Shown here: positions 281-7,682 of the stretch, piece by piece
How positions within the stretch are numbered: position 1 is the stretch's first letter
Layout: each line of letters begins with the position of its first letter
Source: Candidatus Woesearchaeota archaeon
GTDB taxonomy: Archaea; Nanobdellota; Nanobdellia; Pacearchaeales; GW2011-AR1
Reading direction: 5' to 3'
Assembly (NCBI GenBank): GCA_964594495.1
Contig: CAZQLX010000015.1
Coordinates: 1 to 7,975 of the forward strand
Length of the DNA: 7,975 nt
Notes under the pieces: model-generated
What the model was told of the DNA's origin: nothing
Seen by the model: only the letters and a program-made list of their open reading frames with translations
Databases searched by the model: none
Translations under genes and position numbers: made by a program

Positions 281-2014
281 TTAATTTTGTGAGCGTTGCA
301 TGAGATTTCTTTCAATGATAAAATTTTCTATTATAAGATAATCAATCTTGCTCCTTTTAAAAGTATTAATTGCATCCTGTGGAGAACAAACAATGGGTTC
401 TTGAATATTAAAAGAAGTATTTAGTACAAGAGGAATACCTGTTAAGTTCTTAAATTCTTTTATGACTTTGTAATATTTGAGGTCTATATTTTTTGATACT
501 AATTGTAGTCTTGCAGTGTTATCAACATGTGTAACTGCTGGAATTAATTTAATCTTTTCTGGTTTTACTTTGTAAGTGATTAACATATAATATGCTGGCG
601 AATCGAATTTTTTAACATTAAACCATTTTTTAGCATCTTCTTCAAGTACACTCGGACAAAAAGGTCTAAAAACTTCTCTAAATTTAACTTTTCTGTTTAG
701 TTCATCTCTTATTACGGGGCTTCTTGGATCTGCTAAAATACTTCTATGGCCTAATGCTCTCGGTCCCATTTCCATTTTTCCTTGAAAACGTGCAATAATG
801 TTTCCCTTGCTTAGCAATAAAGCAGTAAGTTTTTCTATATTTTTTACTTTTTTATAAGGAATTTTATTTTTATCTAAAGTTGTTTTAATATCTTTTTCAG
901 AATATTTAGGACCTAAATAGGCATCTTTTAACGATGTTTTGTGAGGTTTATTTAGAATTTGATTCCACATATAATAAACAGCTCCAATAGCCGTGCCTGC
1001 ATCATTTGCCGCGGGTTCTATGAATATGTTTTTGAATTGAGTAGAAGGAAGTATTTTACTATTTGCGACGCAATTAAGTGCTACTCCCCCAGCCATACTT
1101 ATATTTTCATTGTGGGTTTCTTTGTATAATCTTTTTACTAAATTTATTATGACTTTTTCCGTTATTTTTTGTAATGATGCAGCAATATTTTCATGAATTG
1201 CGAGTATATGTGAGTTTTGATCTCTTTTTTTAACATTGAATAATTTCTCTAGTTCCTTAAAATTATTTGTTCGAAATTGCATAATTTTATCATTTATTTT
1301 AAACGTGCCATTTTTATTTAGTTTTACAATTTTTTTCATTTGAGGCATCATTTTTTGAGCTTCTCCATAAGAAGATAATCCCATAACTTTTGCTGCATCA
1401 TATTCAGTAAATCCTAAAAATTCCGATATTTTTTCCCATAGAAACCCAAGGGAATCAGGGTATTCTATTTGCAATAATTTATGAATTTTATTTTTCTTTC
1501 CATATCCTAACCATGTACTTGCGGATTCTGCGATTCCGTCTATAATTAATATTGCAGAATCTTTAAATGGAGATAGAAAAAATGCGCTTGCTGCATGACA
1601 AATATGATGTGGTAAAAAATGAAACCTCGTACTTATATCTTCTCCGAAAAGCTTGCTTAGTTTCTTTGGGATATTCATTATTTTTCTATAAAAAATCTTC
1701 TCTCCTTGTTTTGTTCCCCAAGAACTTTTTTGCAAATTTTTCCAGCTGTCTTTGTTTGTACCATTTGCTAATCTAGATTTTGGAAAAAAAGAGTAGCAGA
1801 AATAATCTATGTCTTTAATTTTTATATTTGCCTGATTTGTACAATAATTAATTGCGTTAAGTGGGAGCTCGTCCGGATTATTCACTTGAGCGGTTTTTGC
1901 ATGCTTTTTTCTATTAAATCTTTCTTCTTCAACGAATCCTATAATTTTTCCATCCTTTAATAGACAAGCTGATGATTCATGATATGCCGAATTAATGCCC
2001 AATATATAAGTCAT
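281..2014 (-). CDS. carbamoyltransferase, NodU/CmcH/TobZ family (577 aa)
   Basis: Full-length ORF. The N-terminus MTYILGINSAYHESSACLLKDGKIIGFVEEERFNRKKH is typical of the family. Further family motifs are HHICHAASAF (metal-binding His cluster of the Kae1/ASKHA-like domain), GGVALNCVANSKI and C-terminal NTSFNIQEPIVCSPQDA. Confidence 0.93.
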   Translation of the reverse strand: MTYILGINSAYHESSACLLKDGKIIGFVEEERFNRKKHAKTAQVNNPDELPLNAINYCTNQANIKIKDIDYFCYSFFPKSRLANGTNKDSWKNLQKSSWGTKQGEKIFYRKIMNIPKKLSKLFGEDISTRFHFLPHHICHAASAFFLSPFKDSAILIIDGIAESASTWLGYGKKNKIHKLLQIEYPDSLGFLWEKISEFLGFTEYDAAKVMGLSSYGEAQKMMPQMKKIVKLNKNGTFKINDKIMQFRTNNFKELEKLFNVKKRDQNSHILAIHENIAASLQKITEKVIINLVKRLYKETHNENISMAGGVALNCVANSKILPSTQFKNIFIEPAANDAGTAIGAVYYMWNQILNKPHKTSLKDAYLGPKYSEKDIKTTLDKNKIPYKKVKNIEKLTALLLSKGNIIARFQGKMEMGPRALGHRSILADPRSPVIRDELNRKVKFREVFRPFCPSVLEEDAKKWFNVKKFDSPAYYMLITYKVKPEKIKLIPAVTHVDNTARLQLVSKNIDLKYYKVIKEFKNLTGIPLVLNTSFNIQEPIVCSPQDAINTFKRSKIDYLIIENFIIERNLMQRSQN

Positions 2015-2220: not shown

Positions 2221-2241
2221 GAGAAGTTGTTTGGAATGATT

Positions 2242-2433
2242 ATGATAAAAGGAGTTACCTGCTTGATGCCCGAACAATGCAGTAAATGTGGCGAACTCTT
2301 TGATCTGAGCTATGACCTTGAGAGAGAAGGATTTGTAAATAAGGAGGCTATTGTTGTTGAAATTGTTGGCAAAATGGCTAGACGTAGGGAAGAAAGGAGA
2401 AAACATCTTTGTTGGAGATGTAGAGGAAATTAA
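2242..2433 (+). CDS. small zinc-ribbon-like protein (CxxC...CxxC), 63 aa from ATG 2242
   Basis: The track ORF 2227-2433 begins at TTG. In-frame ATGs occur at 2236 and 2242, and the TATA spacing favours 2242 (MIKGVTCLMPEQCSKCGE...). Two CxxC pairs are present (CSKC and CWRC), and the basic C-terminal segment is RRREERRKH. The antisense ORF 2212-2406 is low-complexity. Confidence 0.6.
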   Translation: MIKGVTCLMPEQCSKCGELFDLSYDLEREGFVNKEAIVVEIVGKMARRREERRKHLCWRCRGN

Positions 2434-2776: not shown

Positions 2777-3556
2777 ATGAATGAGATTGTAGCAACGATT
2801 GTACTGGCAATTATTCAAGGGATTGCTGAATGGTTTCCGGTATCGAGTTCGAGCCATTTAGTTATATTCTCTCATATTCTAGGATTTGAAAATAGTTTAG
2901 CTTTTGATGTTGCTTTGCATTTTGGTACGCTAATGGCCGTTTTTGTTTATTTTGGAAGAGATATAGTTGATATTGTTAGAGATTTGTTAACGGGAAAATG
3001 GAAGAGTGAACATGGGAAATTGGGAATTTTGTTAATTATTGCTGCAATTCCTGCAGCATTGTTTGGATATTTTATGAGTCCGATTATGGGGGGGAGTTTT
3101 GGTAACTTAGGATTGATTGCAATGGGCTTGGCAGTCACTTCTATGTTATTGTTTATTGCTTCTACTGGATTTCAATATAAGAAAAATGGTAAATTGGGAT
3201 ATGCAGCAGCAATAACAATTGGATTGGTGCAGATGTTAGCTATATTTAGAGGGGTATCAAGAACTGGAAGTACGGTTTCTGCGGGATTGTTATATGGATT
3301 AAATGAAAAGACGGCGGTGAAGTTTTCATTTTTGCTTTCTATTCCGATTGTGTTCGGGGCGAATATTATCTCAATTGGAAATAATGCGATTCCTACGCAT
3401 TACATTTGGGCCGCTTTAATTGCATTTGTTGTTGGGCTGTTAACGATCAATTTGTCTTATAAGTATGTACTATCTAATAGAAAGAATCTGAGATGGTTTG
3501 CTTTGTATACTTTGCTTTTGGCGATTGGATTGGGTGTTTATGTAATGATTATTTAG
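2777..3556 (+). CDS. uppP: undecaprenyl-diphosphate phosphatase (UppP/BacA family), 259 aa polytopic membrane protein
   Basis: Signature motifs are AEWFPVSSSSHL (canonical E-x-L/F-P-h-S-S-x-x-H) and FRGVSRTGSTV (canonical P-G-x-S-R-S-G-x-T). The sequence is hydrophobic throughout and of typical length. Confidence 0.94.
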   Translation: MNEIVATIVLAIIQGIAEWFPVSSSSHLVIFSHILGFENSLAFDVALHFGTLMAVFVYFGRDIVDIVRDLLTGKWKSEHGKLGILLIIAAIPAALFGYFMSPIMGGSFGNLGLIAMGLAVTSMLLFIASTGFQYKKNGKLGYAAAITIGLVQMLAIFRGVSRTGSTVSAGLLYGLNEKTAVKFSFLLSIPIVFGANIISIGNNAIPTHYIWAALIAFVVGLLTINLSYKYVLSNRKNLRWFALYTLLLAIGLGVYVMII

Positions 3557-3648: not shown

Positions 3649-3746
3649 ATAGAAACAGAGTATCTATCCTTAGTTCTAGAGTTAATGTTGGAATTGGCAA
3701 ACCTGTTGTGAAAGGCTAGTTATTTACTTGTAGACTCTGTTTCTAT
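3649..3746. repeat. perfect 13-bp inverted repeat spanning the stop codon of the Cys-repeat gene
   Basis: atagaaacagagt (3649-3661) is the exact reverse complement of actctgtttctat (3734-3746), with a 72-nt spacer. On the minus-strand transcript the distal arm is followed by uuugguuuug. Confidence 0.6.
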
Positions 3747-4865
3747 GTTTTCGCATATGGAACTATCTTTTTTATAAAATGCTAGAGAATAGTAACAGTC
3801 ATCTTTAGCAATTGTATCTATAATTGATGCACACATTGATATAGTTACATTTCTATTCAGAATTAGATCAATTGTTGATTCATGATAACATTTTCTTTTT
3901 TTGCTTATGTCATCGTTATTTTCACATACTAGGGGATTTTCAGTTAGAAATGCAGTCTGTGTAAAGCAATTTTCTTTTAAGTAATCACTTATAATCTCTT
4001 TACATACAGCAGGGTTTTTTGATTCCGATATTACATTTTCGTAACAAGATTCGGTAGGACCTAAGAATCGCGTTTCCCCTGCATTTTCCGGAATATACTC
4101 TTTTTGTGCAACGATGTGACCATCTGAAAGCTTATTACATTCGGTAATACTTTTGGCAGATACAGCAACCCTTTCATAGCATTGCTCTTTTGTTGCTTGT
4201 TCCAAGATATTATTGCAAATAGAACTGTCTTTTTTAGCGCCCGCAATTAAAATATAACATTGAGAAAGGTACGATGTTGAATATTCTCCGCTAATTGATT
4301 TACATATAGTTTCGTCATTAATTGTTGTTGCAATTTTTGTATAACAGAAGTTTTTACGGTTATTTCCGAGTACTTTTTCACATAGCAAAGGATCATTTCG
4401 TTTTTCTGCTATTTTACTATAGCACTCGTCATAATTTGAGAACTCGCCTTTACCTATATCAGTAATTGCTCTGTTTTGAATTTTTTCACATAGCTCAGCA
4501 TTGTTTGTATTAAGAGCTACTTGAGTATAGCACGCATCTTTATGAGTCTCTTTTAATTTCTCGCATCCTGATGCATCTTTGTTCGCGATAGAGAATTCTG
4601 CATAGCAAGTTTCTTCTGCATTCAGCCATCTTTTTCCTATCTCTTCACATTTTGATAGATCTTGTTTTTGAATTGCAACTTGTATGTAACATGATGCTTT
4701 TAATTCTTCATTATTAAGATTTTCACACTCTGTTATTATTGATGAATTTTGTTTGTCTGAATTAAGAAAAAGAATCAAAAGGACAAGAATCACTAGTAAA
4801 ATAACACCTAAAATAATCCAGATGTATTTTTTAATCCCATTTTTTGAGGTTTCAGAATCATCCAT
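3720..4865 (-). CDS. membrane-anchored cysteine-rich tandem-repeat protein (381 aa), uncharacterised
   Basis: Long ORF. An N-terminal Lys-flanked TM helix (IWIILGVILLVILVLLILFL) predicts an N-in/C-out topology. It is followed by 11 units of C-[YF]-x3-[AIV]-x(8-9)-C-[EKN]-x-[IL]. A TATA-like element lies 22 nt upstream of the ATG. Confidence 0.85.
   Translation of the reverse strand: MDDSETSKNGIKKYIWIILGVILLVILVLLILFLNSDKQNSSIITECENLNNEELKASCYIQVAIQKQDLSKCEEIGKRWLNAEETCYAEFSIANKDASGCEKLKETHKDACYTQVALNTNNAELCEKIQNRAITDIGKGEFSNYDECYSKIAEKRNDPLLCEKVLGNNRKNFCYTKIATTINDETICKSISGEYSTSYLSQCYILIAGAKKDSSICNNILEQATKEQCYERVAVSAKSITECNKLSDGHIVAQKEYIPENAGETRFLGPTESCYENVISESKNPAVCKEIISDYLKENCFTQTAFLTENPLVCENNDDISKKRKCYHESTIDLILNRNVTISMCASIIDTIAKDDCYYSLAFYKKDSSICENIETESTSK
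3753..4727 (-). repeat. protein-level tandem repeat array (11 units, C-x13-C spacing)
   Basis: There are 23 Cys, at aa 47, 59, 73, 87, 101, 112, 126, 148, 162, 174, 188, 203, 217, 229, 243, 274, 288, 300, 314, 326, 345, 357 and 371. Ten of the 11 units have exactly 13 residues between their two Cys; one has 18. The repeats are diverged at the DNA level. Confidence 0.8.
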
Positions 4866-4887: not shown

Positions 4888-4895
4888 TATATAAA
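4888..4895 (-). promoter_or_regulatory. TATA-box-like element upstream of the Cys-repeat gene
   Basis: The minus strand reads tttatata, 22 nt before the ATG at 4863-4865. It sits in the 40-nt spacer after the alaS stop. Confidence 0.5.
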
Positions 4896-4905
4896 TGTTA
4901 ATGAA

Positions 4906-7065
4906 TTATTCTACAATTGCTTTGATTCTTCTTATACCTGCAGCAACAGCTTCTTCTTTGATTATCTTGAAATGACCTAGTTCTGAGGTGTTGCTAACGT
5001 GTGGACCGGTACAAATTTCTTTTGAGAACCAACCGCGCTTTTTATCGTTTGGGTCGATAATTGTGTATACAGAAACGAGATCAGGGTATTTGGCTCCGAA
5101 TTCTGCTTGTGCACCTGAAGAGAGAGCAGAAGGAAGAGGAATCTCTTCTCTTTTTACAGATAGAGAGGCTTTTATTTTGTCGTTAACAATGGTTTCAACT
5201 TTTTTTATCTCGTCATCAGTGAGTTTGCGAGGGAAATTAAAATCGAAACGGAGGCGTTCGGATGTGATGTTAGAACCTTTTTGTTTTATGTCTTTTGAAA
5301 GAATTTGTCGAAGAGCTTCATTTAGAAGATGTGTTGCTGTATGTAATCTTCTAAATTCTATTGTATCTCCAGCAAGACCTGATTTGAATACTCCGGCAGA
5401 AGCAGTACGTGAAAGATCTTGATGTTTTTGGAATTCTTGGTTGTATTCTTCTAGATCGACTTTAATTGATTTTTCATCTGCTAACTCTTGTGTGAATTCG
5501 ATTGGAAATCCATAAGATTGGAAAAGAAGGAAAGCATCGATACCGGTAATAACTTTTTTATCTTGTGATATCTCTTTAAACTTTTTAATTCCAGCGTCTA
5601 ATGTTTTATTGAATCGTTCTTCTTCGAGGTTTAGTTCTTCAATGATGAATTTGTGATTTCTATGTAGTTCTTGATAGTCTGGATAAACTGAAAGAATAGA
5701 TTTAGATACTTTAGAAGTAAAATTATCTTTAATGCCGAGAAGCTTACCATACCTTATTGCGCGACGGATGAGACGTCTTAAAACGTAACCTTGTCCGATA
5801 TTTGATGGTTTAATTGCTCTTTCATCGCCTAGAATGAAGGTTGCTGCACGAATGTGATCGGCAATGATACGCATTGCTTTGGTATCGTTATCATTACTGC
5901 CATATTTCTTATGTGATATGGATTCTATTTCTTTTATAATTGGTTGAAATATTGTGGAGAGATAATTGTCATTTAGATTATTGAGAATCGTGAGGGTTCT
6001 TTCTACTCCCATTCCGGTGTCTACGTTCTTTTGGGAAAGAGGGACAAATTTAATGGCATTATCCTCTAGAAATTCTTTAATTTTTTCATCATCGTTTTTG
6101 TAAAGCAGAGTAGTTTTAATGCCTACTTTATGTGCTCCAGCTAAATTATCATCACTATGATCAAAATAAACTAATTGTTGTGGAACGAGATTATATTTTT
6201 CTAGAAGTTTATTGAAGAATTCAGGATTTTCCTTCTTTATTTCACCTTCAAAAGAAAATACTTCAAAACCTTTATTTTTTAATATCTTTTCTGCTTTTTC
6301 TTTATGTTTATTAATAACTAATATTTTCTTATTGTTAAAATTGTCTAATACGTTACTGAGTTCTGTATTAATTTCAAAGTTTTCATCGTATAAACAATCC
6401 ATTCCGTCAACTAAAAGCACAGTTTTACTTTTGTTATATTGCATAAAGACATCATTCCATATTTCTACCCAGTTTTTGTCTTTTGGATCGAATTTCTTTG
6501 GAGTTTTTTTACCGATGTAGTAAAACATTTCAGTATCTGGACCGCATGGGCCTGTTTCTCCAGCGGGACCCCACCAATTGTCCTTTTTTGGCAGAAAAGC
6601 AATGCGTTCTTTTGGAATTCCTAAGGAAAGCCAAATTTTAGCAGACTCTTCATCTTTTGGAGCATCTTTGTCTCCTTCAAAAACAGAAATTGCGAGTTTG
6701 TCTATGGGAAGTTTAAGGTTTTTTGTTAAGAATTCAAATGAAAACTTTATAGCATCTTCTTTAAAATAATCACCTAGAGACCAATTCCCTAACATTTCGA
6801 AGAAAGTGTGATGAGTTGTGTTACCTACTTCATCAATATCTCCTGTCCTGACACATTTTTGAACGTCAACAAGGCGTTTTCCTAGAGGATGTTTTTGACC
6901 GAGTAGAAAGGGAACGAGAGGATGCATGCCTGCAGTTGTGAAGAGAACAGTGGGATCGTTTTCGGGAATAAGGGAGGAAGAGGGGATATGTTTATGATGT
7001 TTTGATTTGAAGAATTCTACATATTCTTTAATTAGGTCTTGACGAGTTTTTATCTTTGTGTTCAT
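4906..7065 (-). CDS. alaS: alanine--tRNA ligase (bacterial-type AlaRS), 719 aa, with internal insertion and reduced C-terminal architecture
   Basis: Bacterial AlaRS motifs are present: DPTVLFTTAGM, QKCVRTGDIDEVG, HHTFFEMLGNWSLGDYFK, GPCGPDTEMFY, IWNDVFMQYN, DTGMGVER, ADHIRAATF and GYVLRRLIRRA. The editing-site zinc motifs are HTATH (aa 575-579) and CTGPH (aa 685-689). Confidence 0.95.
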   Translation of the reverse strand: MNTKIKTRQDLIKEYVEFFKSKHHKHIPSSSLIPENDPTVLFTTAGMHPLVPFLLGQKHPLGKRLVDVQKCVRTGDIDEVGNTTHHTFFEMLGNWSLGDYFKEDAIKFSFEFLTKNLKLPIDKLAISVFEGDKDAPKDEESAKIWLSLGIPKERIAFLPKKDNWWGPAGETGPCGPDTEMFYYIGKKTPKKFDPKDKNWVEIWNDVFMQYNKSKTVLLVDGMDCLYDENFEINTELSNVLDNFNNKKILVINKHKEKAEKILKNKGFEVFSFEGEIKKENPEFFNKLLEKYNLVPQQLVYFDHSDDNLAGAHKVGIKTTLLYKNDDEKIKEFLEDNAIKFVPLSQKNVDTGMGVERTLTILNNLNDNYLSTIFQPIIKEIESISHKKYGSNDNDTKAMRIIADHIRAATFILGDERAIKPSNIGQGYVLRRLIRRAIRYGKLLGIKDNFTSKVSKSILSVYPDYQELHRNHKFIIEELNLEEERFNKTLDAGIKKFKEISQDKKVITGIDAFLLFQSYGFPIEFTQELADEKSIKVDLEEYNQEFQKHQDLSRTASAGVFKSGLAGDTIEFRRLHTATHLLNEALRQILSKDIKQKGSNITSERLRFDFNFPRKLTDDEIKKVETIVNDKIKASLSVKREEIPLPSALSSGAQAEFGAKYPDLVSVYTIIDPNDKKRGWFSKEICTGPHVSNTSELGHFKIIKEEAVAAGIRRIKAIVE
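6049..6423 (-). other. HAD-phosphatase-like domain (about 125 aa) inserted in the AlaRS catalytic domain
   Basis: The insertion covers aa 215-339, between ...VFMQYNKSK and FVPLSQKNVDTGMGVER.... HAD-like elements are VLLVDGMDCL (motif I-like) and KILVINK (motif II position). They are followed by KKENPEFFNKLLEKYNLVPQQLVYFDHSDDNLAGAHKVGIKTTLL (motif III Lys plus the motif IV acidic cluster). Confidence 0.65.
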
Positions 7066-7103: not shown

Positions 7104-7682
7104 TTATGCGGCTTTTAAAAGAAGCTTATTTTGCTGATAAAACTGTTCTACACTGTTGGGAATTCCCATTTTTGTCCACCACGGAGGGTTTTTCTCAAAG
7201 TCTCTTTCTCTTCCTTTATATTTAATTTTTCCGTGATAAATCATATAAGGCAAGTGAAAAGGAACTAAATGGGGACTAAGACGTTCTCCTTCTTGTTCAG
7301 GACGAATATGTAGTAATCTTTTTCCTTGAAACATTTCTCCAAGTCTAAGAACTGCTCTTCTCACAGCAACATCCTGAATGTGGTTGCTTGAAGTTTCTTG
7401 TAGATTATAGTCAAATCCTGCGTTTACATTGGATGGGGCAGTATCATATACATCGGAAGCTACACGTGTAAGCCAATTTAGAACCTCTCTTTCTTTTTTT
7501 AAGTGTTCGTAGTAAGCGTCTTCATATATTTGAAGTGCTTCTGGTTTGAAAATTATTCTGTCTCCCCATTGCCATCCAAGGCACCATTGATTTACACCAT
7601 ATTGATCATCAAATTTTTTATGAAGCTCTTCTCTACTAGCGCCGAAGTATCCAGGTCTATCAACAATCTCCCATCCAACCAT
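7104..7682 (-). CDS. hypothetical protein (192 aa), soluble, Trp/Arg/His-rich
   Basis: Long ORF with no TM segment or low-complexity stretch. A TATA-like element lies 21 nt upstream. Its composition differs from the Lys/Ile/Asn-rich neighbours. No family recognised. Confidence 0.75.
   Translation of the reverse strand: MVGWEIVDRPGYFGASREELHKKFDDQYGVNQWCLGWQWGDRIIFKPEALQIYEDAYYEHLKKEREVLNWLTRVASDVYDTAPSNVNAGFDYNLQETSSNHIQDVAVRRAVLRLGEMFQGKRLLHIRPEQEGERLSPHLVPFHLPYMIYHGKIKYKGRERDFEKNPPWWTKMGIPNSVEQFYQQNKLLLKAA

Follow-up and report, generated by a model that had tools for sequence, protein, structure and literature searches.

Bacteria of the Candidate Phyla Radiation (CPR) and archaea of the DPANN group account for much of the diversity of microbes and are seemingly attached to other cells, and their surface molecules are almost all unannotated. 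The 7,975-nucleotide stretch of contig CAZQLX010000015.1 analysed here (the window, meaning this whole stretch) raises the question of what such a molecule might look like, as its reverse strand encodes a protein of 381 amino acids in which cysteine pairs recur at regular intervals. We find that this protein belongs to a very large, undescribed family of 26-residue repeats that has no counterpart in Pfam, NCBIfam or the PDB. As to the protein as a whole, the explanation that fits best, and to which we give somewhat better than even chances, is a surface scaffold or binding module: a type-II-anchored extracytoplasmic alpha-solenoid whose neighbouring units would be stapled to each other by cysteines spaced C-x11-C.

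The gene and its parts are arranged as follows.

3720..4865, minus strand: complete open reading frame (ORF) of the cysteine-repeat protein, a predicted solenoid of 381 amino acids plus stop, and the best match of the family profile in the window (E = 1.5e-95)
4827..4865, minus strand: short N-terminal tail, residues 1-13 (MDDSETSKNGIKK, with K8, K12 and K13), predicted to be cytoplasmic from the sequence and the positive-inside tendency
4764..4826, minus strand: single transmembrane (TM) helix or signal anchor, residues 14-34, YIWIILGVILLVILVLLILFL, read from the sequence
4692..4745, minus strand: half-unit that opens the array, residues 41-58, SSIITECENLNNEELKAS, carrying the second-type (short-helix) cysteine C47 with 11 residues between it and the first Cys-Tyr, delimited with the unit hidden Markov model (HMM)
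3723..4691, minus strand: array of 11 repeat units, residues 59-381, from the cysteine map, the unit HMM and the helices of the AlphaFold2 model
4437..4478, minus strand: insert forming the 21-residue inter-unit linker, about residues 130-143, a low-confidence coil according to AlphaFold2 and DSSP
4059..4136, minus strand: insert forming the 30-residue inter-unit linker, about residues 244-269, of low confidence and mostly coil in the AlphaFold2 model
3753..3755, minus strand: codon of C371, the final cysteine, which is without a downstream partner

The 23 cysteines of the protein are located at residues 47, 59, 73, 87, 101, 112, 126, 148, 162, 174, 188, 203, 217, 229, 243, 274, 288, 300, 314, 326, 345, 357 and 371. 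The successive gaps between them are 11, 13, 13, 13, 10, 13, 21, 13, 11, 13, 14, 13, 11, 13, 30, 13, 11, 13, 11, 18, 11 and 13 residues, with gaps of 13 alternating with gaps of about 11. The first-type cysteines of the 11 units are residues 59, 87, 112, 148, 174, 203, 229, 274, 300, 326 and 357, and ten of these units are spaced exactly C-x13-C, the exception being C326-C345 with 18 residues. When the ectodomain was shuffled 100,000 times, ten such gaps never arose, and the maximum was six. An earlier reading made from the letters alone (the sequence-only reading) had described 11 cysteine units, ten of them with exactly 13 residues between the cysteines, joined by linkers of 10-14 residues save two of 21 and 30; the cysteine map and the list of gaps agree with it on every count. 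It had also left C47 outside the units. While the 11 units that it quoted stand, C47 itself sits in a half-unit, as columns 13-25 of the unit HMM, which was built from relatives, align to residues 45-57 around this cysteine (SSIITECENL). Because C47 belongs to this half-unit, the array opens with a second-type cysteine. The same HMM recognised ten full units in the protein, with domain E-values from 3e-5 to 7e-10, and two partial ones. Pairwise identity among the units is about 33% over an 18-residue core, and no tandem repeat is detectable in the gene at the DNA level; the repeats are therefore old and maintained by selection on the protein. Beyond the stop codon we found no remnant of a further unit.

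Searching with the single sequence, we obtained 13 relatives, with E-values from 6e-28 to 6e-5; with a profile, 21 were obtained. When 1.84 billion cluster representatives were searched exhaustively with an HMMER profile, 11,563 matched at E ≤ 1e-3, of which 5,723 also passed E ≤ 1e-10 and 1,114 passed E ≤ 1e-30. The 381-residue protein itself scores against the family profile with E-values of 1.1e-86 and 1.5e-95. Detailed family statistics were drawn from 169 relatives, all of which have between 3 and 25 units. Among their cysteine gaps, x13 (1,870) and x11 (1,376) predominate and alternate strictly, and 1,019 perfect units gave the 26-residue consensus C-Y-x2-[VIL]-A-x4-[DN]-x-S-[IL]-C-[DE]-K-I-x-[DN]-x3-[KR]-[DN]-x. 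The protein in the window shares the tandem consensus units, the alternating 13/11 cysteine gaps and the single-TM anchor at the N-terminus.

The sequence-only reading could put no name to the cysteine repeat, and our searches agree, with no confident match to a characterised family in Pfam, NCBIfam, PDB sequence and profile searches or Foldseek. A Pfam hmmscan of the protein (E ≤ 10) gave only two noise matches in the TM region, and an NCBIfam scan at the same threshold gave noise only. No Pfam repeat family was found in 47 relatives (E ≤ 1e-3) and no sequence relative in the PDB, whether by single-sequence or profile search (E ≤ 10). Where the source databases name members of the family, they are called 'hypothetical protein' or are named solely after a fused domain, including one 'zinc ribbon domain-containing protein'. 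An exact look-up of the protein in reference genomes gave no match, a single-protein scan of genome contigs detected no relatives, and there were no matches that would indicate a viral or mobile origin in IMG/VR (queried with relative P0004), phage records or plasmid records. Eleven matches carry a specific taxon name, and all are from CPR bacteria (Paceibacterota, three Parcubacteria, Gracilibacteria and Minisyncoccia) or from DPANN archaea and Altiarchaeota (Woesearchaeota, two Nanoarchaeota and two Altiarchaeota). The family thus spans the bacterial-archaeal divide and is, among named matches, confined to CPR and DPANN-type groups. This small sample of 11 supports, and does not prove, a restriction to ultra-small organisms of these types.

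Within the family, the members of a conserved archaeal (DPANN) subgroup are about 465 residues long (P0011 and P0016-P0022; for example at 7001-8410 of locus L085). They combine a lipobox and about six repeats with a short knot dense in cysteines (CxxDSDCDxICEGD...), and also have a conserved C-terminal region, about 230 residues long, that has no Pfam match. A second family member lies directly upstream of the subgroup gene in L085.

The N-termini of the relatives bear on where these repeats reside. Among the 169, we counted 65 with a lipobox-like sequence, 80 with a single hydrophobic helix, 12 with multiple TM segments, 11 without hydrophobic character and 1 that could not be classified, so that a lipobox, a signal or anchor helix or a multi-TM block is present in 157 (about 93%). 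Fused domains are rare and mostly of extracellular types (TSP3_bac, Lcl_C, Fib_succ_major, fn3, DUF1565 and PG_binding_1), and zinc ribbons are fused in a few members. The protein in the window has the single N-terminal TM helix with lysines on its N-terminal side that the sequence-only reading had described: K8, K12 and K13 precede residues 14-34, and D37 and K38 just follow. A reading of the sequence revealed no lipobox or obvious cleavage motif after the helix. Because lysines precede the TM helix, an N-in/C-out topology is predicted. The relatives provide the stronger evidence, and the acidic remainder of the protein (isoelectric point about 4.9) is likely, with high confidence, to be an extracytoplasmic ectodomain. 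Given the anchors and fused domains in its relatives, the earlier placement of the repeats outside the cell is thus very probably right. Separately, three CPR homologues (P0004, P0008 and P0014) have N-termini of the form M-x2-4-QKG[FS] followed by a hydrophobic helix. These resemble class III (type IV pilin-like) signals, except that the Glu normally found at +5 is missing, and may be processed by a prepilin peptidase.

The fold of the protein is confidently predicted to be an all-alpha solenoid, and the AlphaFold2 models of the whole protein and of a fragment bear out the alpha-helical hairpin solenoid that the sequence-only reading had envisaged. For the whole protein, modelled from a 27-sequence alignment, the mean predicted local distance difference test (pLDDT) score was 88.9 and the predicted template modelling (pTM) score 0.75. 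For a four-repeat fragment (residues 144-247, 104 residues, 54 sequences) these values were 94.4 and 0.85. In the model, a long TM helix that is continuous over residues 10-48 is followed by helices of 13-16 and of 6 residues in alternation; the longer ones carry the first cysteine (C-[YF]) at their centre, and the shorter ones carry the second. The 21-residue linker has a pLDDT block of 65 at residues 131-140 and is coil according to DSSP at 129-143, and the region of the 30-residue linker (residues 241-270) has blocks of 84, 56 and 73.

Structural comparison with Foldseek found nothing significant in the PDB, either for the whole protein (best E = 1.3e-2, TM-scores 0.1-0.3, to tetratricopeptide repeat (TPR), designed helical repeat and armadillo-like structures) or for the fragment (best E = 0.2, TMq ≤ 0.5). 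Nor was there a significant match for the whole protein among viral predicted structures (BFVD), where the best were Sel1-repeat proteins (E = 4e-3, TM-score < 0.25). The alpha/alpha solenoid is a known class; judging from the models, its 26-residue form with one long and one short helix is without a close solved counterpart. Conservation falls on a hydrophobic core (Y2, V5, A6, I14 and I18) and on probable helix caps (D11, S13 and D20), and the surface positions vary. Conserved core and cap positions combined with a variable surface are typical of scaffolds and binding modules such as TPR or Sel1 repeats, and not of enzymes.

These observations suggest how the array could be built. Each repeat is predicted to consist of a long helix of about 15 residues with the first cysteine at its middle, a two-residue turn, a short helix of six residues with the second cysteine, and a variable linker. 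The short-helix cysteine of unit i would bond with the long-helix cysteine of unit i+1, closing the variable linker and stapling the neighbouring units. This staple is most probably a disulfide, a chemistry that we propose with moderate confidence. The result would be a rigid acidic rod or superhelix of about 11.5 repeats that projects from the membrane and serves as a scaffold or binding module rather than as an enzyme.

The cysteine spacing by itself leaves two registers to choose from, and the ends of the arrays bear on the choice. A scan of the relatives with a position-specific scoring matrix (PSSM) in which the cysteines were masked detected 1,830 units, of which 1,696 have both cysteines, 94 are without the first only, 20 without the second only and 20 without both. 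At the start of arrays, 25 units are without the first cysteine and retain the second, versus 1 with the opposite pattern, and at the end of arrays 8 units have the first cysteine and not the second. The residues that replace cysteine in these boundary units are mostly polar. Losses at the boundaries together with polar replacements indicate that the first cysteine (C1) faces the preceding unit and the second (C15) the following one. Extra cysteines flank the arrays as well. An additional cysteine follows the last unit in 205 of the 210 arrays whose last unit has its second cysteine, at exactly x11 in 140, and one precedes the first unit in 185 of the 190 arrays whose first unit has its first cysteine, at x11 in 99 and at x10 in 27. 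Arrays are therefore bracketed by a second-type cysteine at the start and a first-type cysteine at the end, as predicted if the short-helix cysteine of unit i goes with the long-helix cysteine of unit i+1.

Two further lines of evidence concern the geometry of the unit. First-to-second cysteine spacings of 10 and 17 occur rarely, and the x17 variant in relative P0005 keeps the preceding x11; these variants amount to a shift of one helical turn, which would break a bond within the unit. We also performed a mean-field direct coupling analysis (DCA) of 497 double units, whose signal of about two standard deviations was used as weak support. Its intra-unit couplings (columns 9-14, 6-18, 4-17 and 3-19) describe an antiparallel hairpin of the long and short helices, a geometry that would put column 15 about seven residues from column 1 in the same unit. 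At the same signal level, the short-helix columns 13, 16 and 18 are coupled to columns 23 and 24, which lie a helical turn ahead of the cysteine of the next unit. If the cysteines pair, then the C-x11-C pair probably joins the short-helix cysteine of one unit to the long-helix cysteine of the next, a register that we consider clearly better than even. The x13 spacing probably reflects the fixed length of the helix-turn-helix and not a bonded pair. The sequence-only reading, which took C-x13-C as the cysteine pair, thus probably chose the wrong register, off by half a unit, as the array-boundary statistics favour C-x11-C across the unit junction. The protein in the window is one of the 5 arrays among the 210 that have no cysteine after the last unit. 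In the x11 register its C371 would be the sole unpaired thiol, at the tip distal to the membrane.

Several observations weigh against this model. The x11 register is drawn solely from sequence statistics, and the boundary pattern could instead reflect the ends of the folding unit, with the cysteines as buried core residues or metal ligands. AlphaFold2 confidence may flatter regular helical repeats. The cysteine count is even in 125 of 145 mature relatives (p ~ 1e-19), which is not independent proof of disulfides; we downgraded this parity, since two cysteines per unit give even counts anyway. With 23 cysteines, the protein in the window itself has an odd number of them, and its terminal partner is missing. 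Most DPANN organisms are anaerobes, and in anaerobes disulfides outside the cell are less to be expected. Among the genes of the window we see none for a disulfide-forming enzyme, and no conserved neighbourhood bears on function.

The alternatives differ from the stapled solenoid in what the cysteines do, in where the repeats are or in what the whole protein forms. With fold and location unchanged, an intra-unit C-x13-C disulfide might staple the long to the short helix of a single repeat. This spacing is the most invariant one, with 1,870 such gaps in the family and both cysteines at exactly this distance in 1,696 of 1,830 units, and in Hcp and COA7 proteins the disulfide does lie within one repeat (PMC8892353). 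We nevertheless consider it unlikely, because it would leave an unpaired cysteine at each end of about 97% of arrays, first units drop the first cysteine and keep the second (25 versus 1), and the x10 and x17 variants would displace one of the partners by a whole turn of the helix; the DCA, with its weak signal, places column 15 opposite about column 8, some 10 Å along the helix from column 1. Equally unlikely in our estimate is that the cysteines are metal or cluster ligands or sites of thiol exchange, arranged as a regular two-cysteine row to which [DE] of column 16 and [DN] of column 25 perhaps contribute. The two cysteines are the only invariant residues and are flanked by conserved charge ([IL]-C-[DE]-K and [KR]-[DN]-x-C), the organisms are mostly anaerobes, in which disulfides outside the cell are less to be expected, and the protein in the window has a spare cysteine at its distal tip. 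Yet His is absent, as are CxxC and CxxCxxC motifs, two cysteines per 26 residues would require two repeats to converge on any four-cysteine site, the conserved Asp, Asn and Ser residues would fit helix N-caps, and neither Pfam nor NCBIfam gave a match to a metal-binding family. A more specific version would see in the two-cysteine pairs a regularly spaced extracellular array on a rigid solenoid, redox-active or metal-binding. CPR and DPANN episymbionts would use it as a covalent latch, formed through thiol-disulfide exchange with surface proteins of the host, or for the binding or relay of metals or electrons where the two cells touch, with C371 as the reactive end; we regard this as a long shot.

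Location and assembly offer two other alternatives. It is most improbable that the repeats are cytoplasmic (N-out/C-in) or that the ORF is silent. Charge is admittedly only modestly biased around the TM helix, with three Lys before it versus one Lys and one Asp after it, but the 65 relatives with a lipobox, the 80 with a signal-anchor-like N-terminus, the full-length ORF, its family-profile E-value of 1.5e-95 and its confidently predicted fold all speak against this reading. The protein might also be a self-assembling component of the envelope or surface layer, and so form a surface array instead of serving as a binding scaffold. The great abundance of the family, its membrane or lipid anchors and the tandem paralogues in one Woesearchaeota locus would suit an array. 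On the other hand, its members range from 3 to 25 repeats, and the gene, wedged between those for alanyl-tRNA synthetase (AlaRS) and UppP, is not syntenic. It looks accessory and fast-evolving and not like a core wall component, and we hold a surface array to be unlikely, at slightly longer odds than either alternative role for the cysteines.

Among known proteins, HcpB and HcpC of Helicobacter and human COA7 consist of disulfide-bridged alpha/alpha repeats (PMC8892353). They resemble the protein in the window in being alpha/alpha hairpin solenoids of an oxidising or extracytoplasmic compartment, with one cysteine pair per repeat that tethers helices and a large exposed surface for a scaffolding role (PMC8892353). 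Sel1-like repeats (SLRs) such as these are, however, given as 30-36 or about 30-44 residues long with helices of similar length, whereas the repeats described here have 26 residues and helices of about 15 and 6. Their cysteines are 7-10 residues apart and bridge the two helices of one repeat, whereas ours are spaced 13/11 and the pair probably lies across the junction. The Sel1 profile (PF08238) matched neither the protein in the window (E ≤ 10) nor any of 47 relatives (E ≤ 1e-3). The nearest Foldseek matches were SLR and TPR proteins, none of them significant, with no PDB match at E < 1e-3 and TM-scores ≤ 0.5. We regard HcpB, HcpC and COA7 as the closest functional analogues; Sel1 membership fails on profile, repeat length and cysteine spacing.

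TPR-like proteins and designed helical repeats (DHRs) are likewise tandem helix-turn-helix superhelices, and include the best Foldseek matches (1w3b, 5cwm and 5cwl). These matches are weak (E = 0.013-2, TMq 0.1-0.5) and come without sequence similarity; TPRs and DHRs also have no cysteine staples, and differ from the 26-residue family in repeat length and in the ratio of helix lengths. No Pfam family of the TPR clan matched the protein or 47 relatives, and the period is 26 residues versus 34 in TPR. Large cysteine-rich extracellular proteins have been described from CPR bacteria, for instance Peribacteria, and proposed to confer rigidity or attachment (PMC4736985). They too are cysteine-rich, signal-peptide-bearing, unannotated and from ultra-small symbionts, but they average 1,655 residues, a weak similarity is reported between them and the cysteine-rich repeats of Myxococcus, the FG-GAP repeats of integrins and pappalysin, and a 26-residue C-x13-C-x11 helical repeat is not described there (PMC4736985). 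The Myxococcus cysteine-rich repeat (TIGR02232 type) had no match in the protein in the window (NCBIfam, E ≤ 10). In the leucine-rich repeat variant (LRV; PDB 1LRV), repeats of 24 residues form alternating alpha and 3-10 helices; to our knowledge they have no conserved cysteine pair. The short period (24 versus 26 residues) and the alternation of longer and shorter helices in a solenoid make LRV a lead only: PF01816 matched neither the protein nor 47 relatives in Pfam, and 1LRV was outside the top 50 Foldseek PDB matches for both models.

What the stapled solenoid would do at the cell surface can be stated with less confidence than its architecture. It may serve an episymbiotic DPANN cell as a scaffold for interaction or attachment at the surface, and a part in host contact or in organising the envelope of such an episymbiont is plausible. 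For the attachment or surface-array role that the sequence-only reading had put forward, we found neither a conserved neighbourhood nor a diagnostic fused domain in support, and the role is purely inferred. The immediate value of the analysis lies in the definition of a family and in a testable structural hypothesis and not in a mechanism. For annotators, the family definition provides a new domain model; for structural biology, it adds a compact 26-residue helical repeat with predicted built-in cross-links; and for research on symbiosis, it offers a concrete candidate, open to testing, for a protein that scaffolds the surface or makes contact with the host.

The gene lies in the following genomic setting.

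281-2014, minus strand: NodU/CmcH-type carbamoyltransferase
2227-2433, plus strand: 68-residue zinc-ribbon-like ORF with two CxxC pairs (CSKCG ... CWRCRG) and a sub-threshold match to PF23228 (E = 5e-4)
2777-3556, plus strand: UppP/BacA
4888-4895, minus strand: TTTATATA, an octamer resembling an archaeal TATA box, ending 22 nt before the ATG of the cysteine-repeat gene, within the 40 nt that separate this gene from the AlaRS stop
4906-7065, minus strand: AlaRS
7104-7682, minus strand: unannotated ORF of 192 residues upstream of AlaRS

The genes for AlaRS and UppP are adjacent and convergent in a Woesearchaeota locus (L011; 7755-8534, gap of 48 bp) and in a Pacearchaeota locus (L017; 5806-6579, 36 bp), and in the window the cysteine-repeat gene is located exactly between them. 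None of 80 AlaRS loci contains a family member. The adjacency of the two genes in relatives and the absence of a member from the 80 loci mark the gene as a lineage-specific insertion, which fits an accessory surface protein with fast turnover. Neither five homologue loci (L001-L003, L084-L086) nor the 80 AlaRS loci have a recurrent partner gene, and we accordingly rejected a function assigned by guilt by association. In one Woesearchaeota locus, two genes of the family are in tandem. The closest homologue (P0002, 26% identity) is encoded on an archaeal-looking contig with Cdc6/Orc1 and VapBC pairs, where it adjoins a VIT1 iron-transporter gene; this locus (L001) is not syntenic with the window.

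The AlaRS belongs to the short bacterial type, scoring 800 bits with NF002436 versus 204 bits with the archaeal TIGR03683. Its closest relatives are from Ca. Pacearchaeota (66% identity in the best aligned segment) and several Woesearchaeota (51-61%); DPANN archaea are nearest overall, interleaved with CPR, Spirochaetes and Clostridia. This suggests an inter-domain transfer of the short AlaRS form. The sequence-only reading had supposed a host with a small genome; the 66% identity to Pacearchaeota and the AlaRS-UppP synteny common to Woesearchaeota and Pacearchaeota are in keeping with this, and make the host probably a DPANN archaeon. On these grounds we rejected a bacterial (CPR) origin of the window, which the bacterial type of the AlaRS had at first suggested.

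Upstream of the cysteine-repeat gene, TTTATATA would suit an archaeal TATA box and a transcript that is almost leaderless; the evidence is weak, because the octamer is to be expected fairly often by chance in DNA of 68% A+T. Scans for sigma-70 promoters and terminators gave results at chance level, and no tRNA genes or Rfam matches were found. The 192-residue ORF at 7104-7682 has no Pfam or NCBIfam match, nor a tblastn match in the 80 AlaRS loci.

The AlaRS also carries an in-frame insertion of about 128 residues in its catalytic domain (residues 215-342, about 6040-6423). It shows weak similarity to HAD-IA hydrolases, with TIGR01509 (E = 1e-6) and PF00702 (E = 1e-3) both below the cut-off. 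The insertion is absent from all 80 related AlaRS loci, and tblastn with it finds nothing; the closest AlaRS locus, from Pacearchaeota (L004), has six residues at the insertion point. The 68-residue zinc-ribbon-like ORF at 2227-2433 overlaps a 64-residue ORF on the opposite strand.

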